Shown in pieces: positions 39,845 to 58,531 of a stretch of 64,000 nucleotides of DNA. A program made the translations under genes and the position numbers. The notes below the pieces were generated by a model. It saw only the letters and a list, made by a program, of their open reading frames with translations. It did not search any database and was not told the origin of the DNA. This DNA is from an uncultured Gemmatimonadota bacterium (GTDB lineage Bacteria; Gemmatimonadota; CAZMKB01), in assembly GCA_964654825.1 (NCBI GenBank), contig CAZZKG010000003.1:26531-90530 (forward strand), in the 5' to 3' direction. Within the stretch, counting starts at the first letter, position 1, and each line of letters opens with the position of its first letter.

Positions 39845-42505
39845 ATGATCAAGCCTGATGAGATCCTTGAATCTCTCGTCACGGTTATGGCAGATAGCTC
39901 GAACCTGGATTCCCTCATGGTTGCTTCACTCGACCTCCTTATCAAAGTGTCCCGAGCCAGTGGAGGGTATCTTCGGGTTGTCGATGCGGCAGGGGAGGGG
40001 AAGACTGTCAGAAAACATTTCTCCCGCGAAGCCTTTCAAATGGTGAACAAACCGGAGTATCAAAACGGCAAGGTCAAAGCCGGGGTCATGAGTACTTCGA
40101 CGGGAAAAGTCCTCATATTTCTCTTCTGTGAGAATGAAACGCAGACCGGGTTTGTTGCCCTTGACTACCGGAGTAGGTCCGTCTCATCGATCGATAATAA
40201 TACCGGCTCGATGGAGACACTTGTCCGGCTCATCGGTTACCAGATCGTGTCCAGATGTCAGGCCGAGATGATGCACAGGAGATACGAAGAGTACAAACGG
40301 GTGATCGAGAAAGCACCGATCGGTATATTGATTTTCGACCACAGCGGCAAGCTGACTTCGATCAACCCGTTCCACACATCCGGACTTCCTGCCCACCGGG
40401 GTAAAGATCTCATCCGGACCACAAACGTGTTACATGATGAATCAATCAAACAGGCGGGACTTCTGAATTATTTCAAAAAACTCCTCGGGGGCGAACCGTT
40501 CGAGCTCTTCAATCACCCTTACACGACCATGTTCATGAAGAAAAATGTCTTTGTGGATGTCCGGGGTGTTCCCCTGATCGGTAGCGAGGGAAAGATAGAG
40601 GGCGGTATCGTTCTGATCAACAATGTGACCGAAAAGGCATGGCTCGAAGAGGAGCTCAGGAATTCCCGTGATCATCTCGAAAACATCATTAACAGTATCG
40701 ACAATGAGATCATCGTCGTCGATCGAAACCACACGATTCAGCTCGTGAACAACGCCTATATCAGAAATTACAATCTGGAAAGCTCTTCTCTCATCGGCAT
40801 GAAGTGCTACTACGTGAGTCACGGAAAAAAGGAGCCATGTACACTCGAAAACAGGGAGTGCCCGGTGAGTAACGTCTTCGCTGATGGTAGGACACGGACG
40901 ATGATTCACCGTCATCAGGGGAAACACGGACCGAGGTCGGTCGAGGTCACCTACACTCCCCTGAAGGACTCGGAGGGTGAAGTTGTTAATGTCATCATCG
41001 TCGCTCAGGATATCACGGAGAGGCTGGTTCTCGAGGTCGAGAGGGAGAAGACCAGGGAGGAATTGAGAGCAGTGTTCGAAGGTATTACCGATTCCATCAT
41101 GGTAATAGACCGGGATTTGAAGATCATCAAAGCCAACAGCGGAAGCGGCCTCCTCTACCACCTGAGAACGGATGACATCATCGGGAAAAAATGTCTCGAT
41201 GTCATAAGAGGGAGCGGTGGAGGGTTTCTCGATTGCCCTGCCGAGAAAACATTCAAAACCGGCCACCCGCTCACACTCTCTGACTGTCTGCTCGAGATAG
41301 CGAACCAGAAGTTATACGCTGATCTGTTCACCTACCCCTCATTCGATCAGGATGGCAACATCTCACATGTAATCATGTACATCCGCGATGTCACGGAGAG
41401 GAAGCTGCTCGAACGCAAATACAGGGACAGGGAAGCTCTGCTTGCGAACATCAGCTCCGACTCCGCTGATGCGATTTTCAGCCTGGACGACGATGACATC
41501 ATCACCTCCTGGAACAAAGGTGCCCAGAAAATGTTCGGGTACGAGGAGAAGGAGGTCGTCGGGAAGAACATCGAATTACTCATCCCCGAGGAGGGGAAGA
41601 AGCAGTTCGAAGAGATTCGGACGATACTGTACCGGGAGGGTTTCGTCAGAAACGTCGAAGCCCGCTGGCAGACGAAGGACGGGCGTGAAGTGGAAATCAT
41701 TTTTACGCGAACTACCCTCACCGATGCCGATGGAAATGTCGTGGGGAGCTCCATCGTGATTAAGGACATCTCCCGTCTGAAAGAGATGGGCCGTGAGCTT
41801 ATTCATGTGGAAAAGCTTGCAGTTCTCGGTAAGATGTCGGCCACCGTGGCACACGAGATCAGAAATCCCCTGGGTTCCATTACACTCAACCTGGATATTC
41901 TGGAGGAGGAAATCGGTGCAGCCGGGGAGAAGCAGGACCCCATCATCCCCGAGCTCTTGTCCTCGATCAGATCCGAGCTCAAACGGCTCTCGCTGATATC
42001 CGATGACTATCTCCGTTTCACGAGGTATCCAAAAGTGAACCTCGCCATGATTGCGTTCGACGACCTCATTGCCGGGGCTGTCGGGCCGCTGAGGGCCCAC
42101 CTCGAGTCGAGGGGCATCGACCTCGAGATTGTTCCGGAGGATGGGACAGGTGTGATCTCAGTTGATGAATATCAGATCGTCCAGGCACTGAGGAATCTGA
42201 TTATCAACGCATCGGAGGCCATGCCCGAACCCGGCACAATCACCATAAAGTACGCAAGACATGAAGATATCGCTGTCATTCAGGTATCTGATACCGGTGT
42301 TGGGATACGCTCCACGGATCTGAACATGATTTTCGATCCTTTTTTTACGACCAAGGAGAAGGGTACCGGTCTGGGCTTGTCCATCGTGAAACAGATTATC
42401 GAACTGCATGGTGGAAAGATCGAATGTGAGAGTACCCCGGGAAAGGGAACCGGTTTTACGCTTCGTTTTCCTGTCATGGAACCTGCTCCCGGAGAAGCCA
42501 GGTGA
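39845..42505 (+). CDS. multi-PAS/GAF sensor histidine kinase
   Basis: GAF-like N-terminus and several PAS-like segments. H-box VAHEIRNPLGSITLNL. HATPase_c (DTGVGIRS...GTGLGLSIVKQIIELHGG). Stop overlaps the next gene start as GTGA. Confidence 0.85.
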   Translation: MIKPDEILESLVTVMADSSNLDSLMVASLDLLIKVSRASGGYLRVVDAAGEGKTVRKHFSREAFQMVNKPEYQNGKVKAGVMSTSTGKVLIFLFCENETQTGFVALDYRSRSVSSIDNNTGSMETLVRLIGYQIVSRCQAEMMHRRYEEYKRVIEKAPIGILIFDHSGKLTSINPFHTSGLPAHRGKDLIRTTNVLHDESIKQAGLLNYFKKLLGGEPFELFNHPYTTMFMKKNVFVDVRGVPLIGSEGKIEGGIVLINNVTEKAWLEEELRNSRDHLENIINSIDNEIIVVDRNHTIQLVNNAYIRNYNLESSSLIGMKCYYVSHGKKEPCTLENRECPVSNVFADGRTRTMIHRHQGKHGPRSVEVTYTPLKDSEGEVVNVIIVAQDITERLVLEVEREKTREELRAVFEGITDSIMVIDRDLKIIKANSGSGLLYHLRTDDIIGKKCLDVIRGSGGGFLDCPAEKTFKTGHPLTLSDCLLEIANQKLYADLFTYPSFDQDGNISHVIMYIRDVTERKLLERKYRDREALLANISSDSADAIFSLDDDDIITSWNKGAQKMFGYEEKEVVGKNIELLIPEEGKKQFEEIRTILYREGFVRNVEARWQTKDGREVEIIFTRTTLTDADGNVVGSSIVIKDISRLKEMGRELIHVEKLAVLGKMSATVAHEIRNPLGSITLNLDILEEEIGAAGEKQDPIIPELLSSIRSELKRLSLISDDYLRFTRYPKVNLAMIAFDDLIAGAVGPLRAHLESRGIDLEIVPEDGTGVISVDEYQIVQALRNLIINASEAMPEPGTITIKYARHEDIAVIQVSDTGVGIRSTDLNMIFDPFFTTKEKGTGLGLSIVKQIIELHGGKIECESTPGKGTGFTLRFPVMEPAPGEAR

Positions 42506-43893
42506 AGAAAAAGAGTGATAAAACCGGAAATGATCACAAGGTCGTACTGATCGTCGAGGATGACGACAGTGTCAGAAGAAGCATCGATATTTCCTTGAAG
42601 CGGGCCGGATACGGGACCCTGATCGCAGAGAATGGTGACCAGGCGATCACTGCGTTGAGGAACAGGTATGTCCACCTTGTCCTTACGGATCTCAGGATGC
42701 CCAAAACCGACGGGCTCGAACTGCTGAGAGCCGCGAAAGTGATCAGACCGGAGGCCGAGGTCATCGTGATGACCGCGTATGGAACAATCGAGACCGCGGT
42801 CGAGGCGATGAAAGTCGGCGCGTACGATTTTATAGAGAAACCGTTCAACCGCCAGACGCTCCTGGCACTCGTGAGAAAAGCTCTCGAGAAACAGTCACTC
42901 GTCGTCGAGAACAGGTTGCTCAGGAAAAAACTCGAGGGGCTCGAGGACAAGCCGCTGTTCATCGGAAAATCCAGGGCTTCGAGAGGAGTTCTGAGGCTGG
43001 CCGAGCAGGTCGCAGCCAGTAAAGCAACCGTGCTCATCCAGGGGAAAAGCGGGACGGGGAAGGGTCTGGTCGCGAAACTCATTCATGAACTGAGCGACCG
43101 GAGGGGAGGACCGTTCGTGCACATCAGCTGTGCCGCCATTCCCGAAACGCTCCTCGAAGCGGAACTCTTCGGATACGAGAGGGGTGCCTTTACCGGAGCG
43201 ATCGCACGGAAGGAAGGCCGGTTCGAAATGGCGGCCGGTGGCTCGATCTTTCTCGACGAGGTGGGCGAAGCGCCACCTTCCACGCAGGTGAAACTCCTGA
43301 GGGTCCTTCAGGAGGGAGAATTCGAACGCCTCGGCGGCAAGAGGACCTTGAAATCCGATGCGCGTGTCATCGCCGCGACGAATCGGAATCTCCTCGAAGC
43401 GATGCAGGCCAATATGTTCAGGGAAGATCTCTATTACCGGCTCAATGTGATCACCATCACCCTTCCCACTCTCAGTGAGAGGACGGAAGACATACCGCTT
43501 CTGGCGCATCACTTCCTCAGCCACTACGCGAGGAAGAACGGCAAACGGGTGAAAGGGGTATCCCAGGATGTGCTCGACCTGTTCAACGACTACATATGGC
43601 CCGGCAACATCAGGGAACTCGAAAATGTAATCGAACGCGCCGTCGTTATCAGCCAGGACGAGTACATCGATGTTGCCGATCTGCCCGATGAGCTCAGGAG
43701 GCGGAGGATACCGACCGATAAAGTGCTCCATATCCCGATCGGTACGAGTCTGAGAGAGACGAAGAAACTGCTCATCCTCGAAACTCTGAAGCACACAAAC
43801 GGCGACAAGGGGACATCGGCAAAAATCCTCGGCGTGGCGACCAGGACCATCTACCGTCTCCTGGAAGAAGAGAAAGACAAAAAGAAGAACTGA
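42502..43893 (+). CDS. sigma-54-dependent response regulator (NtrC family: receiver + AAA+ + HTH)
   Basis: Receiver (VLIVEDDD, HLVLTDLRMPKTDG). Walker A GKSGTGKGLVA. GAFTGA motif. ESELFGHE-like ELFGYERGAF. C-terminal Fis-type HTH. Confidence 0.9.
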   Translation: MKKKSDKTGNDHKVVLIVEDDDSVRRSIDISLKRAGYGTLIAENGDQAITALRNRYVHLVLTDLRMPKTDGLELLRAAKVIRPEAEVIVMTAYGTIETAVEAMKVGAYDFIEKPFNRQTLLALVRKALEKQSLVVENRLLRKKLEGLEDKPLFIGKSRASRGVLRLAEQVAASKATVLIQGKSGTGKGLVAKLIHELSDRRGGPFVHISCAAIPETLLEAELFGYERGAFTGAIARKEGRFEMAAGGSIFLDEVGEAPPSTQVKLLRVLQEGEFERLGGKRTLKSDARVIAATNRNLLEAMQANMFREDLYYRLNVITITLPTLSERTEDIPLLAHHFLSHYARKNGKRVKGVSQDVLDLFNDYIWPGNIRELENVIERAVVISQDEYIDVADLPDELRRRRIPTDKVLHIPIGTSLRETKKLLILETLKHTNGDKGTSAKILGVATRTIYRLLEEEKDKKKN

Positions 43894-43916: not shown

Positions 43917-43932
43917 TGGCACAATAGTTGCT
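43917..43932 (+). promoter_or_regulatory. sigma-54 (-24/-12) promoter: TGGCACA-atag-TTGCT
   Basis: Exact match to the consensus TGGCACG-N4-TTGCW. GG at 43918-43919 and GC at 43930-43931. 100 bp upstream of the CDS at 44033 and immediately downstream of the NtrC-type activator gene. Confidence 0.6.
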
Positions 43933-44032: not shown

Positions 44033-44452
44033 ATGGAGAAACTCTCCCGGGCAATCCTCATCGAACCCGATGCCCTCTTCAGAGAAGCACTGAAGAAAGT
44101 TCTTGAGAGAGAAGGGTTTAAGGTTCTCGAGGCATGTTGTCTGGGTGAGGCCCTCCCCCTGATTCTCGGGTCGAACGTGTCCCTGATCACCACGGAGTTA
44201 AAACTCCCGGACTCGGAGGGACCGGAGACGATTGACCGGCTCCTCGACGTATCACCGGATTCTCAGGTGATCATCCTCACCGCCTTTCCCGAGCTGATAC
44301 CGAATGGCGGTTCTGATCGTTATTCCATTGAAAACGTTATATTTATGAGGAAACCGGTCGGTTTGAAGGATCTCCTCGAGAGAATCTCCTGTCCCCAAGC
44401 GGCGAAAACCCAGAAAATGAAAGACAAAATGTCAGGCGAAATCTCCTCATGA
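44033..44452 (+). CDS. receiver-like domain protein with non-canonical phosphorylation site (Asp->Glu)
   Basis: AILIEPDAL in place of DD. LITTELKLPDSEG in place of the LxxDxxMP phospho-acceptor Asp. Conserved T (IILTAF) and K (MRKPV). Confidence 0.5.
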   Translation: MEKLSRAILIEPDALFREALKKVLEREGFKVLEACCLGEALPLILGSNVSLITTELKLPDSEGPETIDRLLDVSPDSQVIILTAFPELIPNGGSDRYSIENVIFMRKPVGLKDLLERISCPQAAKTQKMKDKMSGEISS

Positions 44453-44628
44453 GAGTTGATTTTGCCTGAATGTCGCATCCGGAGGTTTTCTCACCTCACT
44501 TCTGTCAGACTGAAGTTGGAGTTGCTGAGGAATATCCTCCCGATCGAGAATCGCTTATGTAATAACTTGGGATATAAGTAGTTAGAGAATATACTCACAG
44601 CCTCGACAGTGTTGATTCCTGGCACGAT

Positions 44629-44644
44629 GGTTGCTTCTCTCTCA
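44629..44644 (+). promoter_or_regulatory. sigma-54 (-24/-12) promoter: TGGCACG-atgg-TTGCT
   Basis: Perfect consensus. GC at 44642-44643 lies 27 bp upstream of the ATG at 44671 of the first NHL gene. Confidence 0.65.
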
Positions 44645-44670: not shown

Positions 44671-45618
44671 TTGATTTTCTCTGTATCTCACAGACTGATT
44701 ATTTCCGCATTTCTACTGGTTATCGGGACTGTCGGGGCGGACCTTTTTGCCGAACCTGACGTCACAGTCGAAAATGTCACCTACGGTAAGTCACAGAACC
44801 TCATCTTTCAGGCCCCGAGCAGCATCTATTATGATACCAGAAAAGCCGAGATCTATGTCACCGACTCGGGCAACGCTTCTGTTCTCATTTTTAATAGCCA
44901 GGGCAGTTTTCTCTTCAGTTTCAGACACTGGGTGAAGCGGGACGGCAGAGTGATACCCGGCGAGCCCAGAGATATCGTCGTGTCAGGACGCGGGTACATG
45001 TACCTCACCGATGCTCTCTCCCGGGAGATCGACATCATCAGCGTGAGGGGTGAGAAGATAGAGACGATCGATCCCGGAGATTACAAACCTTACCGTGACA
45101 AAGTAGTGTATCCGCAGTACATGGCGATCGACCCGGCTGACACATTGTATGTCACCATTGATGGAGATGTCAAAGAGGTCCTCGTTCTGGATCCCGAGCT
45201 GAGGTTCGTGAGATCGATCACAGGCACCGGAGGCGGATTCGGGGTCCTCACCGGGATAGCGCTCGATGAGTCGGGCAGGGTGCTGGTCACAGACATCGAA
45301 GGGCCCGAATGCGTGCAGGTTTACTCCCGGGCCGGCGAGTTTCTCTTCGGTTTCGGCGTCAAAGCAATAGGTGATGAGAATTTTTCCCATCCTCACGGTC
45401 TCGCCGTCACCTCGGAGGGAGACATCTGGGTCGTCGACTCGTTCCGGCAGGTCGTCAAAAGATTTACACGTGATGGTACGTTCAAGGAAATGGTCGGTGG
45501 GTTCGGATTCAGGCCCGGTGATCAGCAGTATCCGATCGGGATAGACTCGGATCAGAAAGACAGGATTTTTGTCGCAGAGAAAGTTGGTCGCAGGTTTCAA
45601 ATACTGCGGGCTCACTAG
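44671..45618 (+). CDS. secreted NHL-repeat (six-bladed beta-propeller) protein
   Basis: Signal peptide. Repeated blades of the form IYVTD..., LYVTIDGD, RVLVTDIEG, IWVVDSF and RIFVAEK. Confidence 0.75.
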   Translation: MIFSVSHRLIISAFLLVIGTVGADLFAEPDVTVENVTYGKSQNLIFQAPSSIYYDTRKAEIYVTDSGNASVLIFNSQGSFLFSFRHWVKRDGRVIPGEPRDIVVSGRGYMYLTDALSREIDIISVRGEKIETIDPGDYKPYRDKVVYPQYMAIDPADTLYVTIDGDVKEVLVLDPELRFVRSITGTGGGFGVLTGIALDESGRVLVTDIEGPECVQVYSRAGEFLFGFGVKAIGDENFSHPHGLAVTSEGDIWVVDSFRQVVKRFTRDGTFKEMVGGFGFRPGDQQYPIGIDSDQKDRIFVAEKVGRRFQILRAH

Positions 45619-45686
45619 TGTTCTGTCCGCAGAAAATGGACTCGGGCGGTGCCTGGGAACGTTACCACGAAAGGAGGTGAAGTAGA

Positions 45687-46721
45687 TTGAGGAGATTCAC
45701 AACTGGGGTCGTCGGAGCAGTGGCTGTACTCGCTCTTGCAAGTTTTGCCTTCGCGGGTGACTACCATCATGGTAGTACACTCAACTGCTCCGAATGTCAT
45801 GTTATGCACTACAGTCAGTCTCACGGTTATGATGGTGGTGGAGTATTCACTCCGCTGGGCCCTGACGGTCCATACGAATATCTCTTGAGAAATGAGATAA
45901 ACGACCTGTGTCTCACCTGCCACGACGGACAGACATTCGCTCCGGACGTCTTTGAAGCAGGCACGCAGGTTGGACTGGTCAGGCAAGCCGGTGCGCTGAG
46001 TGAGGTGGGTGGACCTTCGCCCTACGAGGAGACAAACGGTCACACTCTCGGGACGACGGATGCTCCTCCTGGAAATGATGCAGGCTGGACACCGGATCCG
46101 GACCAGGGTCTGACATGTACAGACTGCCATCAACCTCACGGTTACGGCGGTCCGACGGATGATCCATACAGGAACCTCAGCCCGAACTCGGGCGGCGGTT
46201 TCCACGCGTCCGTCACCTACGCTGTCGGAACGAATGATCTCGCCATGGACACCTACGAAAGGGTGAATTCAGGGTCGGATCACTATTCCTTCGACAACGT
46301 AGACTTCAACGAGCCTGATCCCACGGGGTCCGGTTACGCCGCCTGGTGTAAGACCTGTCACACACTGTTCCACGGTGACAAGGGCGGCAGCGAGGTCGGC
46401 GGTGCCACAGGCGAAGAGTGGTTGAGGCACCCTCAGGCGGATGCCGACGTCGGTGATGTCGGTGGTGGACATTCAAGCGCTGATGTTTTTGTGGCTGATG
46501 ATGTCTATCCGAAGGTGATGACCGCTACAGAGAACTGGGCACCAACTGACCCGGCTGATGTGACGGATCACACGCCATCGTGCTTCTCGTGCCACAAAGC
46601 CCACGGGAACCAGAATCCCTTCGGGCTTATCTTCCTGGGGACAACCCTCCCCATTACGGAAGAGGGCACGGGCGACGGAGTGTATGTAACACTCTGTCAA
46701 CAGTGCCACGTGCAGGGTTAG
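45687..46721 (+). CDS. multiheme c-type cytochrome (6 CxxCH)
   Basis: Signal peptide. CSECH, CLTCH, CTDCH, CKTCH, CFSCH and CQQCH motifs. Confidence 0.85.
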   Translation: MRRFTTGVVGAVAVLALASFAFAGDYHHGSTLNCSECHVMHYSQSHGYDGGGVFTPLGPDGPYEYLLRNEINDLCLTCHDGQTFAPDVFEAGTQVGLVRQAGALSEVGGPSPYEETNGHTLGTTDAPPGNDAGWTPDPDQGLTCTDCHQPHGYGGPTDDPYRNLSPNSGGGFHASVTYAVGTNDLAMDTYERVNSGSDHYSFDNVDFNEPDPTGSGYAAWCKTCHTLFHGDKGGSEVGGATGEEWLRHPQADADVGDVGGGHSSADVFVADDVYPKVMTATENWAPTDPADVTDHTPSCFSCHKAHGNQNPFGLIFLGTTLPITEEGTGDGVYVTLCQQCHVQG

Positions 46722-46737
46722 TAATCCCTGTTGATCG

Positions 46738-46775
46738 AGGGGGGTGCTGGTGGTGATCGCACCCCCTTCCTTTGT
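46738..46775 (+). terminator. stem-loop terminator after the 6-haem cytochrome gene
   Basis: GGGGGGTGC (46738-46746) pairs with GCACCCCC (46758-46765), followed by TTCCTTTGT. Confidence 0.5.
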
Positions 46776-46797
46776 AAGGATTTTTCGGACAATTTAA

Positions 46798-47715
46798 ATG
46801 ATGAGATGTATTACAATGTTTTCGCTTCTCCTCCTCCTCGTGGTGAACACGGGTGCCGAATCTCAGATACTTCACTTCTCCCTCACCGAACGGTACGCGC
46901 TCTCCACCTTCCCCGGGGAGGGTGGCTTCGGGAGGATTTCCGACGTTTCCTACAGTCTCGATCTCGACGAGATTCTGGTGGCTGATGAGGTGAGGAGGAG
47001 AATTTTCACCTTCAAATCGGACGGCACTCCCGAGCAGGCTCTGGGAGTCGCCACCGATATCCCGCCGCCGTCTGCGACGGTTCCTGGTGGGGATGGGAAG
47101 GTCTATATCGTCGAGGCCCGGACGGGCAAGCTTTTTACGCTGAATCGTGTTGAAGGAGAACAAGTTGTTCCATTTCGAATAACCGGTGAAAAAATCATGG
47201 ATGAGGTCCGTGTGAGCGGTCTGGTGAGAAGCCGGGCGGGTGTTCTTTACCTTGTTACCGATGACGGGAAACAGATCATCATGTGTGATGGGGAGGGGCA
47301 TTACCGCGGGATGAGTGACCGGGGAGTGAGGCTCGGGAGGCTCATCGCGATCGATGTCGATGACCGTGGGAGGATCATCGCCGCGACCCGTGGATTGATC
47401 CCCCTCCGACTGTTCGATGGTTCGGGTTCTTTTTTGAGGAATATCGAGATCAGGGATCTCGCGACGGATATGTCGAGATCCGAGATCGGAGGTGTCGCAT
47501 TCGATGCCCAGGGGAGGGTGTGGCTCACATACCCCGTGGATGGTCTCGTCAGGGTGTTCGATGAAACCGGAACGCTTCTGGACGAGATCGGGAGCTCGGA
47601 GATACCCGGCGGACTTTTTTCCCCGGCTGATATCGAGATCACCCCGATGGGCGATTTACTTATCCTCGAACGGGGATCGAACCGGGTACGCTGTTTCTCG
47701 ATGGAATTACAGTGA
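46798..47715 (+). CDS. secreted NHL-repeat beta-propeller protein
   Basis: Signal peptide. Blades KVYIVEARTG, VLYLVTDDG, RIIAATRG, RVWLTYPVDG and DLLILERG. Confidence 0.7.
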   Translation: MMRCITMFSLLLLLVVNTGAESQILHFSLTERYALSTFPGEGGFGRISDVSYSLDLDEILVADEVRRRIFTFKSDGTPEQALGVATDIPPPSATVPGGDGKVYIVEARTGKLFTLNRVEGEQVVPFRITGEKIMDEVRVSGLVRSRAGVLYLVTDDGKQIIMCDGEGHYRGMSDRGVRLGRLIAIDVDDRGRIIAATRGLIPLRLFDGSGSFLRNIEIRDLATDMSRSEIGGVAFDAQGRVWLTYPVDGLVRVFDETGTLLDEIGSSEIPGGLFSPADIEITPMGDLLILERGSNRVRCFSMELQ

Positions 47716-48623
47716 AAAATAAATTCTTTCCTGTTGTGATGATACCACTGCTCCTGGTCTCCGTCTTTACAGATGTCGGAGAGGGAATCGCTGAGGTGCG
47801 CCTGCAACTGAAGCCCGCGGCAATGCTCACGGCACCGGGAGCCAGGCTTTCTTCGGTCGCTTACTCCGATGTCTGGGATGAGATCTACGCCGTGGATATG
47901 CTTACCGGGGATATCCTGGTGAGCAAAATGAAATCTCTAAGGTTCGATAAGCTGGAAGTGCGAGGGGAGCTCAAAGCATACGCTCTCACCGTCGGGGATG
48001 AGGATTTTCTGTTCGTCACTGACCTCCGCGGGTCCGGCGTGACCAAGATCACACCCGCTGGGGATATCGTTACGAGAATCGATGTGGGCACGGAAGAGGC
48101 TCCCGGTACCTGTCTCGGCAGGATAAGGACAGGCCCTGAGGGCAGGATCTATGCCGTCGAGCGTTCCGGGGACAGGATTTTTATTTTTGATAACAAGCTC
48201 GAGTCCATGGAGATTGTTCACCTGGGATCCCCGTCCGACACCCTTACGGTCGTGGATCTGACATTCGGTGAAGGCGGGACGATTCTGGCTCTTTCTTCGA
48301 AAGGCCAGGTACTCCGGAAGTTCGATGGTTCTGGAACGTATCTGGGAGGGTTCGGGATCCACAGTACGGACAAGAGCGCATTCTCGCTGCCGAGTGCGAT
48401 CACAAGGGGACCTGATGGTAATCTCTGGATAGTCGACTCCTTCCAGCACACTGTAAAATTGTACTCACAGACTGGTGATTTTCTCTACGCTCTGCTCGAT
48501 ATGGCCGCGTCCGGGAAAGGTCTCTACTTCCCGGTGGACATCGTATTCATCTCGAGGGACCGGGTTGCCTTACTGGACAAGGGATCATCGAGTATAAAGT
48601 TCTTCGAGGTGGAAAGCTCCTGA
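47712..48623 (+). CDS. secreted NHL-repeat beta-propeller protein
   Basis: Overlaps the upstream stop by 4 bp. Blades IYAVDMLTGD, FLFVTDLRG, RIYAVERSGD, NLWIVDSFQH and RVALLDKG. Confidence 0.7.
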   Translation: MKNKFFPVVMIPLLLVSVFTDVGEGIAEVRLQLKPAAMLTAPGARLSSVAYSDVWDEIYAVDMLTGDILVSKMKSLRFDKLEVRGELKAYALTVGDEDFLFVTDLRGSGVTKITPAGDIVTRIDVGTEEAPGTCLGRIRTGPEGRIYAVERSGDRIFIFDNKLESMEIVHLGSPSDTLTVVDLTFGEGGTILALSSKGQVLRKFDGSGTYLGGFGIHSTDKSAFSLPSAITRGPDGNLWIVDSFQHTVKLYSQTGDFLYALLDMAASGKGLYFPVDIVFISRDRVALLDKGSSSIKFFEVESS

Positions 48624-48633
48624 CGGTGATCGT

Positions 48634-50730
48634 ATGACAGGATGGTTCGAAAGAAAAAGCGTTTATTTCGGCCTGGTACTCGTTCTTTCGGCGGGGAACC
48701 TGACCGCCGATGAACATCATGACAGTAATGAGATTCCATGCTCCGACTGTCACACCATGCATTACGGTGACGTCACGTTCGACAGAGAACCGCTGCGCCC
48801 AGGAGGTCCTTTCGAGCACCTCCTGCTGGCGCCGGAGGACGAACTCTGCCTCAGTTGCCACGATGGTACAGATCCCTCCGCTCCGAACGTTGTCTCAGGA
48901 GAAGGGGCGGAGTTGTCCGGAGGGTGGTTCACGCTGGGATCCGGTTCTGATGAGAACGGACATACACTGGGAAGCCGCGAGCTTCCACCGGGGTCGACAC
49001 GCGACCGAGTCGATACGCGATTGCGATGCATCTCCTGCCACGATCCGCACGGGAATAAATATTACCGGAATCTACGCCCGGCTCCCGGGGGAGGGGAAGG
49101 ACCCGGCCTGACATCCGGGAGAGAAACAGCCGGATCGAGTAACACGAGCGTGCTGATGCTGGATGCCTCGGGTGCCTCTAGGTATGCCCCGGAGAGTGTA
49201 CGGTTTCATGGATCGTTACAGACGGGTCAGGGCGCGCACATTTCTGCATGGTGCGGGGGCTGTCACACCATGATGCACGGCGATGGAGGAGATCCGGAAA
49301 TGGGTGGTTCGTTGTACGGGCACCGGGAAGCGAAGACTGTCTGGCTGCAGCATCCGGTAAAAGGTATCCCGATGTCTCTCTCCGTCAAAAACGGACACGA
49401 TGAGAACAGGGGCTGGTTCGAAGATTACGCTTCGAGACTCTCGGTTGCTTCTTCGGGAGAAGTCCCGGGCACTCCGGCTGCGAGCGACAACGAGATTACA
49501 TGCCTCACCTGCCACGCCGCCCACGGCAGCGGTTTTCGTTTCTCCCTCATTTACGACGACGCCGAAACAGTGCTCGAAAGAGACGGTCGGCGATTGAGTC
49601 AGAGCTGCCGGCAGTGCCACCGGTTCGGTCACGAGCCGTTTGAACACACTCTTCACGGTGATCCTGAGAACGGCGTCCAGAGGACAGGTTCACCCGACGA
49701 GCGGGGTGAGTGCAGTCAATGTCACATTATGCATGGCGCGGTCGAGAGCGGTGTTACAGGCGGTGAGGCGTTCCCCTATCTCCTCTTTACCGAAAACGGC
49801 AACAATCTCTGCTACGGAGGAGGCGATGCCGGAGGATGTCACCGTGACAGGCCGTTCAATTATCCGGCGCGGGAAAGCGATCGAATGCCGGAGTATGCGG
49901 ATAATCCCGGTTACTTCGAGTTCAACAACGGCGCCGTTCGCATTCCCGGGGTCAACAAACGCAACCGCTGGCCCGGAGAGCAGGCCTACGAGAACCCTCT
50001 GACGTACAAAGGCGGGAAGTTGTTCTCCCCGCACGCATTCGATCAGGACATGCCGATAGTGGATGAATCCGGACAGGGGGCCTGCCGGAACTGCCACGAT
50101 CCTCACGAGGGTGATGGATCACATGATCTTCTGGTGATGGAATACGGTCCGGTGAGCGGTGCCGGTGAAATCAAAGCCCCGGCAGCGTACGATCTCTGCC
50201 TGGGCTGTCATTCGTTCGAGGGGCCGGTGGGTATGGACATCGAGAACAAATGGATCCGTGACTACTATGATTCATCGATCAACGAGGATCTGACCACCGG
50301 CCACCAGATACGCTTCAATCCCCGTGTAGCCCTGTCATGGCCGAGCAACGTGGAGCTGGGGGACAAGTTGCCATGTTATGACTGTCACAACCCCCACGGT
50401 TCCTGGGGAAATGATGGAACGAATCCGAACGGTTATCTGATCAGCGATGAGAGGCCGGATTGGAGCGGCCTGACCGACACTCTGGATGATCCAGGACAGT
50501 CACGGAGATTCTGCCTCGGCTGCCACATCTCCTCTGATGGCGAAGCGGGTTCACGGTCAGTGGAAGGCATTATCATGAATACGATTTCGAGTCGAAAAGG
50601 CCACTTGTCCTCATCCGGGGCGTCGTGTCATACCTGTCATGGTGGTGATTATTCGACCTCCAACTCATTCAATGTGCATCACCCGGCTGGAGGTGCGGTT
50701 GCCATCGAGAAGGAAAAACAGATCCGTTAG
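48634..50730 (+). CDS. multiheme c-type cytochrome (12 CxxCH)
   Basis: Signal peptide. Twelve CxxCH motifs. The N-terminal CSDCHTMHYG...LCLSCHDG module is shared with the 6-haem and 7-haem cytochromes. Confidence 0.85.
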   Translation: MTGWFERKSVYFGLVLVLSAGNLTADEHHDSNEIPCSDCHTMHYGDVTFDREPLRPGGPFEHLLLAPEDELCLSCHDGTDPSAPNVVSGEGAELSGGWFTLGSGSDENGHTLGSRELPPGSTRDRVDTRLRCISCHDPHGNKYYRNLRPAPGGGEGPGLTSGRETAGSSNTSVLMLDASGASRYAPESVRFHGSLQTGQGAHISAWCGGCHTMMHGDGGDPEMGGSLYGHREAKTVWLQHPVKGIPMSLSVKNGHDENRGWFEDYASRLSVASSGEVPGTPAASDNEITCLTCHAAHGSGFRFSLIYDDAETVLERDGRRLSQSCRQCHRFGHEPFEHTLHGDPENGVQRTGSPDERGECSQCHIMHGAVESGVTGGEAFPYLLFTENGNNLCYGGGDAGGCHRDRPFNYPARESDRMPEYADNPGYFEFNNGAVRIPGVNKRNRWPGEQAYENPLTYKGGKLFSPHAFDQDMPIVDESGQGACRNCHDPHEGDGSHDLLVMEYGPVSGAGEIKAPAAYDLCLGCHSFEGPVGMDIENKWIRDYYDSSINEDLTTGHQIRFNPRVALSWPSNVELGDKLPCYDCHNPHGSWGNDGTNPNGYLISDERPDWSGLTDTLDDPGQSRRFCLGCHISSDGEAGSRSVEGIIMNTISSRKGHLSSSGASCHTCHGGDYSTSNSFNVHHPAGGAVAIEKEKQIR

Positions 50731-52360
50731 TACCGGGATCTGCCTGCTCTTCGCTCTGATCGCGGGATCGGGAGTATTAGGAAGAGCGAGCGGGCAGGCG
50801 AGATTGGGAGGAAGATTGAACCTGTTTTATCAGGAATCGAGGCTGGGAGACCTGTACTCCAGGAATTCCAACCAGAATCTGGATCTAACGATCTACGATG
50901 ATCTCTTTGCGAAGAACATGATTTCCCTGTCATATCTCATGGAACGAAAAACAGGATCCTCCCAGCCGCAGGATTTCCTGAGGCACAGGATCAGATCGAC
51001 CATCACCGGCAGAGCCTTCGTCTTTACTTCCGAGTATTCACCCCCTCACACGCTGAGGGGGACAATCGGGGAAACTTCTCAGAAATCGGACAGGAAGAGA
51101 TTCCTTCTGGGAGTGAATCCCGAGGATTACCCGGTATTCTCACTCTCCTACGACCGATCCGACCGCCACGGCGGAGCCGGCAATTTCAGAGTGGATTCTG
51201 TGAACGAGAACTCACTCGCTGCGACCAGTTATGACTACCGATTTGCCGGCGCACGCGCGACGTTCAGGGAGAGGAAGACCACCAACCACCTGGACACGGG
51301 TCTCAACCGAAGATTGAGTGAAGGCACCGGCGGCGTGACACTGGAAAGCAGGCTTGGCCCAATCGGGAGTTTCATGGCCAGCTATGACGGTCTGCTCTCA
51401 AAGGAAAAATTTGGGGGGAGGGACAGGGCCCGCGTGAGAATCGACAATGTGCGGGGACTCTTCTCTTCGAATCCTGCCAGGTGGCTCACTCTCTCGGCCA
51501 ACTTCCTCGGGTCAATCATTGACAGGGAAAACGAGACCGCCAACAGGACTCTATCGCAGGAGCTCTATACCGCGGCAACGTATCAGCCGAGGGAATACCT
51601 TCAGTTCCAGTTTGCGAGAGACATCAGGGAAACAGAAGAAGACGGCACGACGACACTCTCGGATTATGCGAGGGCCCAGAGTACGATTCAGGGTTATCTG
51701 AGGGACGGCATCCGGGGCAGAGCGTCGATCCAGAGGACATTCGTCATCAAAAGTGAAGAGGGAGCATTTCCGTCGAACGGTTATTTTTTCAACCTGGACA
51801 CCGACTTGATGCCCGGAGCGATACTGGCATTCGATCTCAATGTGACGAAGAGCGAGAATCCCAATGCACAGATCGGCACCTACCAGGTCAGAAAAGTGGT
51901 TGATCTGAGAGGCTTCCCGAGATCCGACCTGTCGATCAATTTCGCGTACCGGACCCTCCAGTTCGGCAACTCTCTCGATCTGCTCGGTTCGAAGACGTAC
52001 GATGTCGAATTAGATCTGAACTACCGGCCGAAACCGAGATTTTCAACAATTCTCACCCTCACCCGGAGCGTCGACAGGCGTGTGCTCGGTGGAGCGGGGT
52101 TGTTTCTGAGCTCCACGACGACATATTCACTGGCCGGTGGAAGTCACCTGAGCTTCATTTACATCCGCCGCGATGTGAGCGGTGCTATTATCCAGACTCC
52201 CGGCGTCAGTGCGCAGGGTACCTATCCCAATAACTATCTCCTCGAACTGGTGATCCTGATGGCACGGCAGACGAGGCTCAGCGTGAAATATGATATCAGG
52301 GATCTCTCCCAGGGCAGCATCAGCACCGTGCTGGGAATAACTTTCATCAAGAGGTTTTAA
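50672..52360 (+). CDS. putative outer-membrane beta-barrel protein (candidate porin partner of the cytochromes)
   Basis: Positively charged n-region followed by a hydrophobic signal segment (TGICLLFALIAGSGVLG). Alternating-polarity strands throughout. C-terminal ...GITFIKRF ending in aromatic Phe. Start uncertain. Overlaps the upstream cytochrome 3' end. Confidence 0.45.
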   Translation: MCITRLEVRLPSRRKNRSVSTGICLLFALIAGSGVLGRASGQARLGGRLNLFYQESRLGDLYSRNSNQNLDLTIYDDLFAKNMISLSYLMERKTGSSQPQDFLRHRIRSTITGRAFVFTSEYSPPHTLRGTIGETSQKSDRKRFLLGVNPEDYPVFSLSYDRSDRHGGAGNFRVDSVNENSLAATSYDYRFAGARATFRERKTTNHLDTGLNRRLSEGTGGVTLESRLGPIGSFMASYDGLLSKEKFGGRDRARVRIDNVRGLFSSNPARWLTLSANFLGSIIDRENETANRTLSQELYTAATYQPREYLQFQFARDIRETEEDGTTTLSDYARAQSTIQGYLRDGIRGRASIQRTFVIKSEEGAFPSNGYFFNLDTDLMPGAILAFDLNVTKSENPNAQIGTYQVRKVVDLRGFPRSDLSINFAYRTLQFGNSLDLLGSKTYDVELDLNYRPKPRFSTILTLTRSVDRRVLGGAGLFLSSTTTYSLAGGSHLSFIYIRRDVSGAIIQTPGVSAQGTYPNNYLLELVILMARQTRLSVKYDIRDLSQGSISTVLGITFIKRF

Positions 52361-52959
52361 TGGAGAGAATATTTTCGAAAATCGATTTGAGAGGCCTGAA
52401 AGTTGCAGTTTTTCTTGTACTTATCCTGTCAGTACAGCAGTGTGGAGGTCCCCGGAGGTTCGTGCACCCCGAGGCCGATGTCTCGTACTACGAGCGGCTT
52501 GGCCTGCTGTCGTTCGAGAACCTCGCCACTGACCGGGTCGCAGGTGAAAAAGTCACCAACGCGTTCCTCACGGAACTGTTGATCTCGAAGCGGTTCGAGG
52601 TCGTGGAGCCAGGCAGGGTCAACAGGGCCTCGAGAGAGCTCGGGCTTCCTTCTCCACTCATAGGCGGCGAGCTCACGCCCGAGGAGGTCAAGGAACTGGG
52701 TGAGCAACTCGGGGTCGAGGCGCTTTTGAGGGGTGTGGTTCGTGAATATGAGATGGTACGCATCGGGCAGACACAGTACCCGCTGGTCACCCTCGACATC
52801 GAATTGCTGGACGTAGCGACCGGGACCACCGTCTGGGTTATCAGTCATACGAAAAAGGGAGGTCCCAACCTGCCCTTCGTCAGTGTTGGAGAAACGTTCA
52901 CCCTTGGAGAACTGTTGCAGGAAATATGTCACGATATCGTATCGAAAATCCCGAAATAA
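52360..52959 (+). CDS. lipoprotein, LpoB/TolB-N-like fold (putative)
   Basis: Signal peptide with Cys (LSVQQCGG). Pattern LLSFENLATD...FEVVEP...LG..LGVEALLRGVVREYE resembles the LpoB/CsgG/TolB-N fold family. Paralogous to the next gene. Confidence 0.4.
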   Translation: MERIFSKIDLRGLKVAVFLVLILSVQQCGGPRRFVHPEADVSYYERLGLLSFENLATDRVAGEKVTNAFLTELLISKRFEVVEPGRVNRASRELGLPSPLIGGELTPEEVKELGEQLGVEALLRGVVREYEMVRIGQTQYPLVTLDIELLDVATGTTVWVISHTKKGGPNLPFVSVGETFTLGELLQEICHDIVSKIPK

Positions 52960-53555
52960 GACGAATCAGGTACCCGATCCTGATCTTCGCGCTCCTCTTG
53001 TTGATCTGTTCCGGTTGCGGACCGACACCGCGGACTTACCTGAACGATGATATCAATACACTTCAGGGGTACCGTGTAGCGCTCTTGCCACTCGACAACC
53101 TTAGTGGAGTGGACGGTGCCACCGAGAAGATCGATGAGCTTCTTCTCGTCGAGCTGCTGAGGACCGGCTCTTTCCAGGTCATCGAACCCGGGGAAGTCGA
53201 AAGGGTGCTCCTGGAACTGAGGATCCGGAGGACCTCCGAGCTTTCTCTGGAAGATATGACTGCGGTCTCCCAGCGGTTGAATGCGGATGCTCTCCTTGTG
53301 GGGTCGGTGCTCGAATACGGTAGAAAAGAATCGAGATCAATCGGCGGTGGACAGGTCCCCAGTATCACCATTGTACTCAGACTGGTGGATGTCAAAAACG
53401 GACAGGTCCGGTGGGCGTCCTCACACTCGAGGACCGGTGATGATGCGGAAAAGGTGTTTGGGATCGGGAGGATCAGGGATCACAGCAGACTCAGTAGAGA
53501 GATCGTCAAAGAGATGCTCGAATCATTAGAGCTGACAGTATCGGCACAGAAATGA
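52926..53555 (+). CDS. lipoprotein, LpoB/TolB-N-like fold (paralog)
   Basis: Lipobox-like LLICSGCG. VALLPLDNLSG...FQVIEPGEV...ADALLVGSVLEYG parallels the previous protein. Confidence 0.4.
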   Translation: MSRYRIENPEIRRIRYPILIFALLLLICSGCGPTPRTYLNDDINTLQGYRVALLPLDNLSGVDGATEKIDELLLVELLRTGSFQVIEPGEVERVLLELRIRRTSELSLEDMTAVSQRLNADALLVGSVLEYGRKESRSIGGGQVPSITIVLRLVDVKNGQVRWASSHSRTGDDAEKVFGIGRIRDHSRLSREIVKEMLESLELTVSAQK

Positions 53556-54022
53556 GGGTTGTTACTATGTCCAGGTTCGTGATGATTGTTTTCCTTCTCT
53601 GTTTGACAACAATGACGGGGTATTCGGATGTGCTGAGTGAAGAGACACCCCCCGCTGACCCCGGGTCGATTACCCTTCTGGCGAAGCACCGGCTCTACCC
53701 CGATTTTTCCGAACAACACACCGTCGCCATGAACCAGAGATTCGCCATATCCGATGAGGGGTACGAAGCGGTCATCACCAGGTATCTCCCTGATTTCGCC
53801 ATCCAGATCACCGATGAGGGGAAGAAGATATTCTCCAAATCGACAGAGGCCAACAATCCGGCATTCTGGATCGTCGTGTACAAGGACAGTGCGGCGGTAG
53901 ACAGTGTGTGGGCGTTTTCTGTCAGGGGAGCGCCTCATTTTTCGAGGAATTCATTCATATATTTCGAGATCCTCGAGTTCGATTCAGGGGACACCTCTGG
54001 TGAAACGGAGGAGGGGCAATGA
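53552..54022 (+). CDS. small secreted hypothetical protein
   Basis: Signal peptide. No recognised domain. Its 4-bp overlaps with both neighbours suggest translational coupling. Confidence 0.4.
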   Translation: MRVVTMSRFVMIVFLLCLTTMTGYSDVLSEETPPADPGSITLLAKHRLYPDFSEQHTVAMNQRFAISDEGYEAVITRYLPDFAIQITDEGKKIFSKSTEANNPAFWIVVYKDSAAVDSVWAFSVRGAPHFSRNSFIYFEILEFDSGDTSGETEEGQ

Positions 54023-57126: not shown

Positions 57127-57184
57127 ACCGTTCTATCAGAGGAAAGAGTTTAACGAAACAGGGGGAGTAAGGAGAGAAGTCTGG

Positions 57185-58360: not shown

Positions 58361-58531
58361 CTCGAGAAAAATCTGCCGGAAATCCGCATCCATCTGCCGA
58401 AGAAGGATGATATTGCGGAGAGTTGGGAAGGAGGATATATTTAGGGCGATTTTGGCTTAAGTGTAATTCATGGGTAGGGAGGCGTGCTTCACTCTCTCTC
58501 TAAACACGCACTCTTCACCGTGGGAGGTAGT

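Follow-up and report, generated by a model that had tools for sequence, protein, structure and literature searches.

Our preferred reading, to which we assign a probability of roughly 0.55, is that three beta-propeller proteins encoded in the window (the whole 64,000-nucleotide stretch of DNA that was analysed) are Sec-exported, non-catalytic, six-bladed NHL accessory proteins of an OmcS-type nanowire cluster related to the Geobacter osc system. Their most probable function is to bind nanowire subunits without catalysis, so as to hold, dock or anchor them. The first-pass annotation had listed three possible roles, namely scaffolds that dock the cytochromes, binders of minerals or humics, and lyase/oxidase-type enzymes, and the first of these fits best.

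Gene organization and regulation

The segment under study covers positions 44,671 to 48,623, and the open reading frames (ORFs) of the cluster lie on the forward strand throughout.

39845..42505, +, PAS-domain histidine kinase ORF, heading the regulatory module
42502..43893, +, NtrC-type sigma-54 activator (response regulator and AAA+ domain)
43917..43932, +, sigma-54 promoter-like site TGGCACAATAGTTGCT, an exact pattern match preceding the single-domain response-regulator gene
44033..44452, +, single-domain response regulator, 139 aa (Pfam Response_reg 46.5 bits)
44620..44635, +, sigma-54 promoter-like site TGGCACGATGGTTGCT, 36 nt 5' of the NHL1 start codon
44671..45618, +, NHL1, exported six-bladed NHL propeller, 315 aa, with a TTG start and an AAGGGG ribosome-binding site upstream
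45687..46721, +, cyt6, OmcS-family hexahaem cytochrome, 344 aa, 6 CxxCH, candidate nanowire subunit
~46737..46768, +, GC-rich hairpin followed by T-rich sequence, putative terminator or attenuator 3' of cyt6
46798..47715, +, NHL2, exported NHL propeller, 305 aa, lineage-restricted subfamily
47712..48623, +, NHL3, exported NHL propeller, 303 aa, its start overlapping the NHL2 stop by 4 bp and its end 10 bp before cyt12
48634..50730, +, cyt12, 12-haem cytochrome, 698 aa, OmcS-like N-terminal half and six more haems in the C-terminal half
50639..52360, +, OscE-like large outer-membrane protein, probably a beta-barrel, C-terminus ...KRF
52360..52959, +, OscF-like lipoprotein, 199 aa, LpoB/CsgG-type domain (Pfam LpoB 28.7 bits)
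52926..53555, +, OscG-like lipoprotein, 209 aa, CsgG/LpoB-type domain (Pfam CsgG 46.8 bits)
53552..54022, +, small conserved protein, 156 aa, no Pfam match
54019..57126, +, giant cytochrome, 1035 aa, 42 CxxCH haem motifs (Paired_CXXCH_1 689 bits)
56927..58360, +, 7-haem cytochrome, 7 CxxCH, weak OmcS/OmcT similarity (OmcT E 1e-5 over 368 aa)

Start codons are uncertain for the OscE-like ORF, because it overlaps the end of cyt12, and for the 7-haem ORF, because it overlaps the preceding gene. The gene order confirms the earlier description of NHL genes alternating with cytochrome genes of six and twelve haems (6 and 12 CxxCH counted), with NHL2 and NHL3 in tandem and coupled upstream of the 12-haem gene.

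Scanning for the pattern TGGCAC-N5-TTGCW gave an exact match at TGGCACGATGGTTGCT, in line with the sigma-54 promoter that had been proposed for NHL1 and the 6-haem gene, while the terminator proposed after the latter coincides with the cyt6 3' hairpin (whole-segment minimum free energy −28.2 kcal/mol, z-score −2.76), which a simple terminator scan did not pick up. The product of 42502..43893 matched Pfam Sigma54_activat (226 bits) and Response_reg (97 bits), a gene type also found upstream of the Geobacter NHL-omcS pair, and a syntenic PAS/HisKA/HATPase_c gene was found in loci L001 and L003. Of the loci scanned, only L003 and L009, both from Glassbacteria, keep the NHL1-side sigma-54 site, and a motif scan found no strict sigma-54 motif before the Geobacter NHL gene. 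In this lineage the histidine kinase and NtrC-type activator encoded next to the NHL1-cyt6 pair would turn on its expression via the sigma-54 promoter.

Sequence and fold of the propellers and their cytochromes

All three propellers scored above the Pfam NHL cut-off of 20 bits (NHL1 69.7, NHL2 32.4, NHL3 23.4), and sequence searches with each matched the crystal structures of the TRIM2, TRIM3 and TRIM71 NHL domains, with best E-values of 3e-29 for NHL1 (TRIM2), 7e-10 for NHL2 (TRIM71) and 1e-11 for NHL3 (TRIM3). The AF2 model of NHL1 (pLDDT 92.3) is all-beta with six blades and superposes on the TRIM3 NHL domain with a TM-score of 0.84. These results uphold the initial assignment of three NHL beta-propellers of about 305 aa, each with a signal peptide: hydrophobic N-termini are visible by inspection in all three, residues 5–25 of NHL1 form a helix in the model, and an N-terminal hydrophobic segment occurs in 59 of 62 NHL1-family members, a lipobox-like motif in only seven. 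The term "paralogs" previously applied to them is loose, since mutual identity is only ~25% and the proteins belong to distinct subfamilies. None of the three contains a CxxCH motif. Eukaryotic TRIM-NHL proteins (TRIM2, TRIM3, TRIM71, Brat), the best sequence and fold matches, are likewise six-bladed and bind macromolecules on the top face, but they act in the cytosol as E3 ligase modules that bind RNA or protein, having the fold alone in common with the window proteins and no functional link to cytochromes.

By sequence comparison, cyt6 and the N-terminal half of cyt12 were shown to be OmcS-family cytochromes. A profile of 43 cyt6 homologues had OmcS (6EF8) as its sole significant PDB match (E 1.9e-6); BLAST aligned cyt6 over its full length with Geobacter OmcS (E 2e-9) and OmcT (E 4e-11), and OmcS, OmcT and OscC aligned to cyt6 at full length with E 1e-8 to 1e-11. 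The six CxxCH motifs of cyt6, and six distal His, are all collinear with their counterparts in OmcS, OmcT and OscC. One of these His, H41, corresponds to His16 of mature OmcS and does not vary within the family. The AF2 model obtained for cyt6 itself is poor (pLDDT 55). cyt12 shares 33% identity with cyt6 over residues 15–332, is matched by OscC (E 1e-10) and OmcS (E 2e-9), and is collinear with the OmcS motifs in its N-terminal half.

Conservation of the pairing and comparison with known systems

We surveyed 80 species-level genomes from more than ten phyla, yielding 75 assessable OmcS-like loci, and found that the pairing is conserved well outside this genome, as the first-pass annotation had proposed to check by co-occurrence. 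In 66 of the 75 loci the gene immediately preceding the OmcS-like gene, on the same strand, was of the NHL1 type; local NHL density gives a chance expectation of ~1.4 for direct adjacency. An NHL gene occurred somewhere in the locus in 72 and none was present within 8 kb in three; all 94 NHL ORFs were on the cytochrome strand. The two genes often overlap or nearly abut: estimated gaps between NHL1- and cyt6-type genes were ≤20 bp in 16 pairs and ≤130 bp in 48. Independently retrieved NHL1 homologues, down to 37% identity, also have a cytochrome downstream. The NHL1-cyt6 pair is intact even at loci such as L035, L049 and L075, where the remaining cluster is rearranged or absent. Orthologues of NHL2 and NHL3 occurred only in Glassbacteria and Gemmatimonadota loci, before the 12-haem fusion cytochrome, with NHL3 always in tandem behind NHL2. 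The three NHL proteins are not equivalent: NHL1 is a widely conserved partner, and NHL2 and NHL3 are a lineage-specific add-on. A directly adjacent NHL gene was absent from nine of the 75 loci, and a Geomonas true-OmcS locus had none, such that the partner is not strictly obligatory. At one locus, L069, an NHL propeller and an OmcS-like N-terminal haem module are encoded as a single ORF, a fusion we take as a hint in favour of our preferred reading.

Among true-OmcS loci, five of six have an NHL-profile gene directly upstream of the OmcS-family gene. The Geobacter order is histidine kinase, sigma-54 activator, 315-aa NHL, OmcS, OmcT, OscC, OscD, OscE and OscF, and we consider NHL1 the counterpart, mainly by position, of the NHL gene directly upstream of Geobacter omcS, known in the literature as GSU2505. 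Genes of this type (loci L089 and L093) resemble NHL1 in encoding a 315-aa NHL propeller (Pfam NHL 20.7 bits) with a Sec signal, in adjoining an OmcS-family hexahaem gene on its 5' side and the same strand, and in having a histidine kinase and sigma-54 activator upstream. NHL1 and the Geobacter protein are collinear at 22% identity (E 1e-8; profile score 132–190 bits), but NHL1 is a far more canonical NHL sequence and is closer to the TRIM2 NHL domain than to the Geobacter protein, and for this reason the correspondence rests mainly on position. Published information on GSU2505 function consists of a transposon study and a suggestion (PMC9070056); as the insertion sits upstream of omcS in the gene order, we infer that the phenotype may be polar.

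Homology extends downstream of the cytochromes, and the cluster as a whole is distantly related to the osc (OmcS-companion) system of Geobacter. The OscE-like protein has no Pfam match, but its iterated family profile was present in 61 of 80 loci and matched Geobacter OscE (718 aa) at 81 bits (E 1e-23). The OscF-like lipoprotein shares 33% identity with Geobacter OscF (E 9e-18) and matches a 200-aa protein of locus L096 (E 6e-22), where the 392-aa product of the next gene after OscF matches the OscG-like lipoprotein (E 7e-26). The 156-aa protein occurred in ~40 of 80 loci, always immediately before the giant cytochrome, whose position is held in most loci by cytochromes of ~35–42 haems. Like the window cluster, the osc operon carries several OmcS-like paralogues (OmcS, OmcT and OscC, against cyt6, the N-terminal half of cyt12 and the 7-haem protein), an OscE-type large outer-membrane protein, OscF/OscG-type lipoproteins of the LpoB/GNA1162 type and beta-propeller proteins. 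It also has OscB (spermine-synthase-like), the prolyl isomerase OscH and a haem-bearing, 490-aa OscD, none of which was detected in the window, so the machinery differs from the characterised osc system. The window cluster in turn adds NHL2, NHL3, the 12-haem fusion cytochrome, the 156-aa protein and the 42-haem cytochrome, and its host is a Glassbacteria-like organism outside the Desulfuromonadia. According to the account in PMC13194489 of Shen et al. (2025, Cell Chem Biol 32:239), OscH serves folding, OscEFG secretion and the propeller-like OscD morphology.

The association of propellers with cytochromes is real and of an already recognised kind, represented by GSU2505 and osc and by three further systems, which we liken to the window cluster by their descriptions. 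Two beta-propeller lipoproteins are a constant feature of the omcE clusters of Desulfuromonadia, as is a large beta-barrel (10.1101/2025.10.22.684050), and the minimal cluster has the same gene grammar as here (multihaem cytochromes, two beta-propellers, nanowire subunit, large beta-barrel), whereas its subunit is the tetrahaem OmcE instead of an OmcS-like hexahaem protein and its propellers are lipoproteins, unlike the NHL1 family, which mostly lacks a lipobox. In Desulfovibrio ferrophilus IS5, the NHL propellers DFE_0451 and DFE_0463 adjoin predicted extracellular multihaem cytochromes; the NHL proteins are co-expressed with outer-membrane cytochromes (PMC5815863), under electron-donor starvation, and have been proposed to stabilise the cytochrome complex (PMC5815863, PMC9769857). 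The tandem NHL proteins UetH and UetI (Ca. Tenderia, Gallionella) sit beside an undecahaem cytochrome in a porin-cytochrome cluster, resembling NHL2-NHL3-cyt12 (10.1101/2022.05.06.490989, PMC10734462), but the Uet cluster serves electron uptake or iron oxidation and includes tri-haem c7-type cytochromes, a cupredoxin and a prolyl isomerase.

Proposed role and competing explanations

We propose that each propeller binds the OmcS-like cytochrome encoded immediately after it, a predicted interaction. Its most likely task would be to retain newly matured subunits in the periplasm, or else to attach them, by docking or anchoring, to the OscEFG-like outer-membrane machinery, in this way controlling where and how subunits polymerise. 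The propeller would not be a stoichiometric component of the wire. NHL2 and NHL3 may have an equivalent role for the 12-haem OmcS-like fusion protein. Deletions of D. ferrophilus cytochrome clusters gave no Fe(III) oxide phenotype (PMC9769857), which we count against this explanation.

The alternative that survives best, though we judge it unlikely, is that the propellers are structural scaffolds of a static trans-outer-membrane conduit, made up of periplasmic and surface cytochromes and a barrel, and do not handle polymerising subunits. Such a role was suggested in PMC5815863 for DFE_451 and DFE_463, and in 10.1101/2022.05.06.490989 for UetH and UetI; the large outer-membrane protein, two lipoproteins and 42-haem cytochrome of the cluster would suit a conduit, and polymerisation of cyt6 is itself a prediction. 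However, the specific linkage of the NHL gene is to the OmcS-like gene and to neither the barrel nor the giant cytochrome, the pair persists where the cluster is rearranged or absent, and the equivalent of His16, which mediates OmcS polymerisation, is invariant among cyt6 homologues.

We are more sceptical still that the propellers act extracellularly on finished filaments, as has been reported for OscD, setting morphology, bundling or length by end capping or anchoring. OscD is propeller-like, and its assigned function is nanowire morphology (Shen et al. 2025, as reported in PMC13194489); OscD-type proteins match the same NHL profile at 68–106 bits, and the L069 fusion, in which a propeller carries an OmcS-like N-terminal donor module, is what would be expected of a cap or anchor. 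Yet only one such fusion was seen, NHL1–3 lack the CxxCH motifs present in OscD and the L069 protein, and the window NHL proteins are ~300 aa long, against ~470–490 aa for OscD-type proteins, and occupy another cluster position.

It is highly improbable that Fe/Mn minerals, humics or a partner cell are bound by the propellers as extracellular substrates for presentation to the cytochromes. NHL-derived Pizza designs bind metal ions and nanocrystals (PMC12016550), and designer Pizza structures are among the sequence and fold matches of NHL1; NHL orthologues also diverge faster than the cytochrome (median identity 30% vs ~50%), as expected of a surface-exposed binder. Against this, the check for conserved metal-binding His/Cys that had been proposed was negative: across 61 NHL1 orthologues the conserved positions are blade-motif Gly, Pro, Asp and Arg, and no Cys, no His cluster and no metal-ligand cluster is conserved. 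Propeller export is supported to the periplasm only, and substrate binding would leave the tight gene-by-gene pairing with one cytochrome type unexplained.

Action as lactonase-, lyase- or PAL-type enzymes modifying the cytochrome or a small molecule, related to the lyase/oxidase role raised earlier, is scarcely credible. The Pfam scores that favour it are weak, with SGL at 21.8 and 22.6 bits and Vgb_lyase at 27.7 bits, and fall below the curated cut-offs of 26.3 and 50; the 61 orthologues share no catalytic-type His, Cys or acid cluster, and the fold is far nearer to TRIM NHL domains (TM-score 0.84) than to Vgb lyase (~0.6).

Gene order and the three exported propellers

Three NHL beta-propellers (NHL1, NHL2 and NHL3) and the 6- and 12-haem cytochromes interleaved with them (cyt6 and cyt12) lie behind regulatory genes in a co-oriented cluster that ends in further multihaem cytochromes.

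Genes and regulatory sites of the cluster in the window
39845-42505, +, PAS histidine kinase
42502-43893, +, NtrC-type sigma-54 activator
43917-43932, +, sigma-54 promoter-like site, exact match to TGGCAC-N5-TTGCW, preceding the single-domain response regulator
44033-44452, +, single-domain response regulator, between the NtrC-type activator and NHL1
44620-44635, +, second sigma-54 site, exact match to TGGCAC-N5-TTGCW
44671-45618, +, NHL1, 315 aa
45687-46721, +, cyt6, 344 aa, 6 CxxCH
~46737-46768, +, GC-rich hairpin; region folds at -28.2 kcal/mol, z-score -2.8
46798-47715, +, NHL2, 305 aa
47712-48623, +, NHL3, 303 aa, overlapping NHL2 by 4 bp
48634-50730, +, cyt12, 698 aa, 12 CxxCH
50639-52360, +, OMP573, unannotated protein, 573 aa, OscE-like
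52360-52959, +, lipo199, LpoB/CsgG-like lipoprotein
52926-53555, +, lipo209, LpoB/CsgG-like lipoprotein
53552-54022, +, p156, small protein, 156 aa
54019-57126, +, giant cytochrome, 42 haem motifs
56927-58360, +, cytochrome, 7 haem motifs

The layout described in the first-pass annotation was recovered in full: cytochromes of 6 and 12 haems alternate with the NHL genes, a sigma-54 promoter match precedes NHL1, which is separated from cyt6 by 68 bp, a terminator-like hairpin follows cyt6, and the overlapping NHL2-NHL3 tandem is coupled to cyt12. The hairpin was not reported by a simple terminator scan because its loop is too long, and was shown by folding. With longest-ORF starts, the OscE-like gene overlaps the preceding gene by ~90 nt (50639-50730) and the 7-haem cytochrome gene overlaps its neighbor by ~200 nt (56927-57126); the true starts of both are probably further downstream, since the orthologues have fewer residues (525-562 aa in the case of the OscE-like protein).

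All three propellers scored above the curated Pfam NHL (PF01436) cut-off of 20 bits (NHL1 69.7, NHL2 32.4, NHL3 23.4 bits) and matched TRIM NHL crystal structures by sequence (E = 3e-29, 7e-10 and 1e-11, respectively). NHL1, which alone was modeled with AF2, was predicted with high confidence (pLDDT 92.3, pTM 0.87) as a six-bladed propeller of ~26 strands that superimposes on the TRIM3 NHL domain with a TM score of 0.84. Each N-terminus is a hydrophobic, signal-like segment lacking a lipobox, in agreement with the signal peptides initially assigned, and the NHL1 family is predicted to be Sec-exported and mostly not lipidated. The description of the three proteins as paralogs needs correction: pairwise identity is only ~25% and they fall into separate subfamilies, and a recent duplication is therefore rejected.

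OmcS-like cytochromes in an osc-like cluster

We assessed the affiliation of cyt6, whose family numbers more than 900 members, using an alignment with 42 homologues (43 sequences). The only significant PDB match of the resulting profile was 6EF8, the OmcS nanowire of Geobacter (E = 1.9e-6), which was reached only with the family profile, as single-sequence phmmer searches with cyt6 and cyt12 gave no match in the PDB. Geobacter OmcS, OmcT and OscC aligned to almost the whole of cyt6 and of the N-terminal half of cyt12 (BLAST E = 1e-8 to 1e-11), and when they were added to the alignment all six CxxCH motifs were in register. Six histidines outside the motifs (H27, H41, H119, H151, H229 and H306) were likewise aligned with all three Geobacter proteins and invariant in the 43 homologues; position 41 is equivalent to His16 of mature OmcS, which in published structures ligates a haem of the neighboring subunit (PMC12307469). 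Over its first 330 residues, cyt12 shares 33% identity with cyt6; the remainder of the protein adds another six haems. The AF2 monomer model of cyt6, built from the 43-sequence alignment and lacking haems, was too poor for fold searches (pLDDT 55), so the relationship with OmcS rests on sequence profiles instead. By these comparisons, cyt6 and the N-terminal half of cyt12 belong to the OmcS family of hexahaem nanowire cytochromes, and cyt6 is a candidate filament subunit; the earlier treatment of them as generic multihaem cytochromes gave their haem numbers correctly and did not extend to the family. Three further histidines invariant in the cyt6 family (46, 248 and 262) are absent from OmcS, OmcT and OscC, in which positions 248 and 262 are aromatic, and the family has more histidines than six bis-His haems need.

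The genes downstream resemble part of osc, the OmcS-companion system of Geobacter. The Geobacter sulfurreducens omcS locus runs from a histidine kinase and a sigma-54 activator through a 315-aa NHL protein, OmcS, OmcT, a 1017-aa spermine-synthase-like protein, OscC and OscD, a 492-aa YncE-like propeller with a CSGCH motif, to the 718-aa OscE and the 199-aa LpoB/GNA1162-like lipoprotein OscF (Osc gene names as in PMC13194489, citing Shen et al. 2025). Identity between lipo199 and OscF is 33% (E = 9e-18), lipo209 matched the 392-aa protein encoded directly after OscF in a related Geobacter locus (L096; E = 7e-26), and an iterated profile of the OMP573 family reached OscE at 81 bits. An OscE-like protein and OscF/OscG-like lipoproteins beside OmcS-like genes thus mark the cluster as osc-like. 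LpoB/CsgG-type domains occur in both adjacent lipoproteins (52360-53555), which are homologous to OscF and OscG; a Pfam CsgG match of 46.8 bits connects them at domain level with the family that takes its name from CsgG, the lipoprotein of the curli secretion channel.

The correspondence with osc is partial. BLAST searches of the window, as proteins or as DNA, with OscE, OscD and OscB returned nothing, and similarity to OscE and OscD was visible solely with iterated profiles. Domain searches of the cluster genes revealed neither a rotamase nor a spermine synthase, a tblastn check of limited sensitivity with OscB and two partial PPIases gave no hit in the window, and no haem-bearing OscD was found there. 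Conversely, the examined stretch of the Geobacter osc locus contains no equivalent of p156 or of the 42-haem cytochrome. p156, which has no Pfam match, overlaps the 1035-aa, 42-CxxCH cytochrome by 4 bp (53552-57126), and a ~150-170-aa protein followed by a ~1040-aa cytochrome with ~35-42 haems forms the cluster end in most of 80 related loci.

OscD-type proteins (~490 aa, N-terminal CxxCH) matched a profile built from the window NHL proteins at 68-106 bits, and the two propeller types of nanowire clusters may therefore share ancestry, although NHL1, NHL2 and NHL3 differ from OscD in lacking CxxCH, in their length (~300 aa) and in their position in the cluster. Proteins of this type, ~470-490 aa and annotated as YncE- or lactonase-like, were located in the G. 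sulfurreducens omcS locus (L093:17193-18671) and three further loci (L094:2594-3991, minus strand; L095:8404-9819; L096:9819-11270); in Geobacter OscD, CSGCH lies right behind the signal sequence.

Conservation of the propeller-cytochrome pairing

NHL1 homologues with identities down to 37% all had a ~340-aa cytochrome gene immediately downstream. We then scanned one genome per species with the cyt6-family alignment and recovered 80 loci from Glassbacteria, Gemmatimonadota, Zixibacteria, Eisenbacteria, Acidobacteriota, Ignavibacteria, Krumholzibacteria, Armatimonadota, Latescibacterota, Planctomycetota and others. After setting aside five loci cut by a contig end, 66 of the 75 assessable loci had an NHL1-type gene directly upstream on the same strand, compared to ~1.4 expected from the local density of other NHL genes, while six had an NHL gene elsewhere in the locus and three had none within 8 kb. 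All upstream genes in the 66 loci were of the NHL1 type, and estimated junctions with the cytochrome gene were ≤20 bp in 16 pairs and ≤130 bp in 48 pairs. The co-occurrence of NHL genes with multihaem cytochromes proposed from the window is accordingly found well outside this genome.

The usual architecture consists of NHL1, an OmcS-like hexahaem cytochrome, a 5-9-haem cytochrome, an OscE-like protein, two lipoproteins, the 156-aa protein and the ~42-haem cytochrome, and several genomes have a second propeller-hexahaem pair elsewhere in the cluster. The NHL2-NHL3 tandem occurred only in Glassbacteria and Gemmatimonadota loci and always before a cyt12-type gene. Within the true OmcS clade, an NHL-profile-positive gene (312-332 aa) was directly upstream of an OmcS-family gene in five of six loci examined, and residues 50-313 of NHL1 were collinear with residues 51-314 of the Geobacter 315-aa protein (22% identity, E = 1e-8). 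The window therefore has the arrangement of GSU2505, the NHL gene directly upstream of omcS: a co-oriented NHL gene for ~310-330 aa directly upstream of an OmcS-family gene. In these surveys, a propeller gene followed by an OmcS-like gene proved to be the most constant element of the clusters, spanning Geobacter to Glassbacteria, Zixibacteria, Eisenbacteria, Acidobacteriota and others. At one locus (L095:4980-6928), tandem genes for 330 and 319 aa with a 4-bp overlap lie directly upstream of a true OmcS homologue, in an echo of the NHL2-NHL3 tandem; only the second matches the NHL profile.

The association of NHL proteins with cytochromes is already known and is not new. GSU2505 has been suggested as possibly needed for OmcS assembly or expression (PMC9070056, citing Rollefson et al. 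2009) and is not mentioned in Chan et al. 2017. NHL proteins of D. ferrophilus are co-expressed with outer-membrane cytochromes and proposed as stabilizers (PMC5815863), UetH and UetI are NHL proteins of the Uet cluster (10.1101/2022.05.06.490989, PMC10734462), and omcE clusters always contain two beta-propeller lipoproteins and a large barrel (10.1101/2025.10.22.684050). Our comparison of DFE_0451/DFE_0463 and UetH/UetI with the NHL proteins draws on published descriptions (PMC5815863, PMC9769857, 10.1101/2022.05.06.490989). The window contributes a new instance rather than a new principle, namely one in a Glassbacteria-like organism with an extra tandem propeller pair before a 12-haem OmcS-fusion cytochrome, and the survey puts numbers on how consistently, across phyla, the NHL1-type gene accompanies OmcS-like hexahaem genes, more so than any other companion. 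In genomes of uncultured phyla, candidate nanowire loci can be recognized in practice by an NHL gene followed by a hexahaem gene with the conserved CxxCHxxH start and by OscEFG-like genes.

Putative role of the propellers and regulation of the pair

Among the roles offered in the first-pass annotation, a lyase- or oxidase-type enzyme is disfavored and a scaffold or partner is favored, with a substrate binder as the third candidate. Were the propellers lactonase- or lyase-type enzymes, catalytic residues should be retained, yet across 61 NHL1 orthologues (median identity to NHL1 30%) the conserved positions were blade-motif Gly, Pro, Asp and Arg, with no conserved Cys, no His cluster and hence none of the metal-binding residues envisaged for the propeller. 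Enzyme profiles also fell below their cut-offs (Pfam SGL 21.8 and 22.6 bits against 26.3; Vgb_lyase 27.7 against 50), Vgb lyase aligned to the NHL1 model with a TM score of only ~0.6, and neither profiles nor catalytic residues placed the propellers with SMP-30/gluconolactonase (SGL), virginiamycin B lyase or PAL.

The favored interpretation makes each propeller a putative non-catalytic partner protein, which would bind the OmcS-like subunit whose gene follows its own. This is suggested by the missing Cys/His cluster, the sub-threshold enzyme scores, the closest folds, which are macromolecule-binding TRIM NHL domains, and predicted Sec export; the residue, fold and export evidence fits the tight, co-oriented and often overlapping gene junction and the homopolymeric OmcS filaments of published structures (PMC12307469). 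The propeller would either hold the subunit or serve to dock or anchor it on outer-membrane machinery of the OscEFG type. For the osc operon, the assigned roles are folding for OscH, secretion for OscEFG and morphology for OscD, which is propeller-like (Shen et al. 2025, via PMC13194489). How OmcS-type cytochromes avoid periplasmic polymerization, are exported and anchor the wire to the cell is open in the field, and a 2025 review calls nanowire secretion and anchoring 'still speculative' (PMC12307469). The pairing singles out a small, soluble and easily expressed protein as an obvious target for genetics and binding studies.

At one locus (L069:6131-7690, plus strand), the ORF immediately before a cyt6-type gene codes in series for a signal peptide, an OmcS-like N-terminal module that has one CxxCH as well as the His16 equivalent (cyt6-family HMM positions 15-73, E = 2e-12) and an NHL propeller (137 bits), a natural fusion of both partner types found in this single case. 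Geobacter OscD likewise joins an N-terminal CxxCH to a propeller matching the same NHL profile. Together these architectures are a hint that such propellers can sit at a filament end, and the L069 protein, with its OmcS N-terminal donor module joined to a propeller, points toward an interface cap or filament anchor. A broader conjecture, to which we give roughly one chance in four, is that NHL1-type propellers are an uncharacterized, near-universal component of OmcS-type nanowire biogenesis in more than 10 phyla, capping the polymerization interface (the haem-5/His16 site) or forming a cell-proximal filament anchor or cap, with the NHL2-NHL3 tandem a specialized version for the 12-haem 'extended' subunit.

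A sigma-54 promoter before NHL1 was matched in few of 62 loci (one strict and two relaxed matches), all of them the closest Glassbacteria loci, and sigma-54 regulation thus appears to be lineage-specific and outside the conserved module. The single-domain response regulator (44033-44452), a small regulator syntenic in four other loci (L001-L004), has its own exact sigma-54 match, and the regulator set may therefore be a feed-forward arrangement. Just beyond the downstream end of the cytochrome cluster, at 60041-62564, comes a second pair of histidine kinase and sigma-54 activator genes, preceded by a c554-like cytochrome gene (58484-59077) and a MobB-like gene on the opposite strand (59178-59858).
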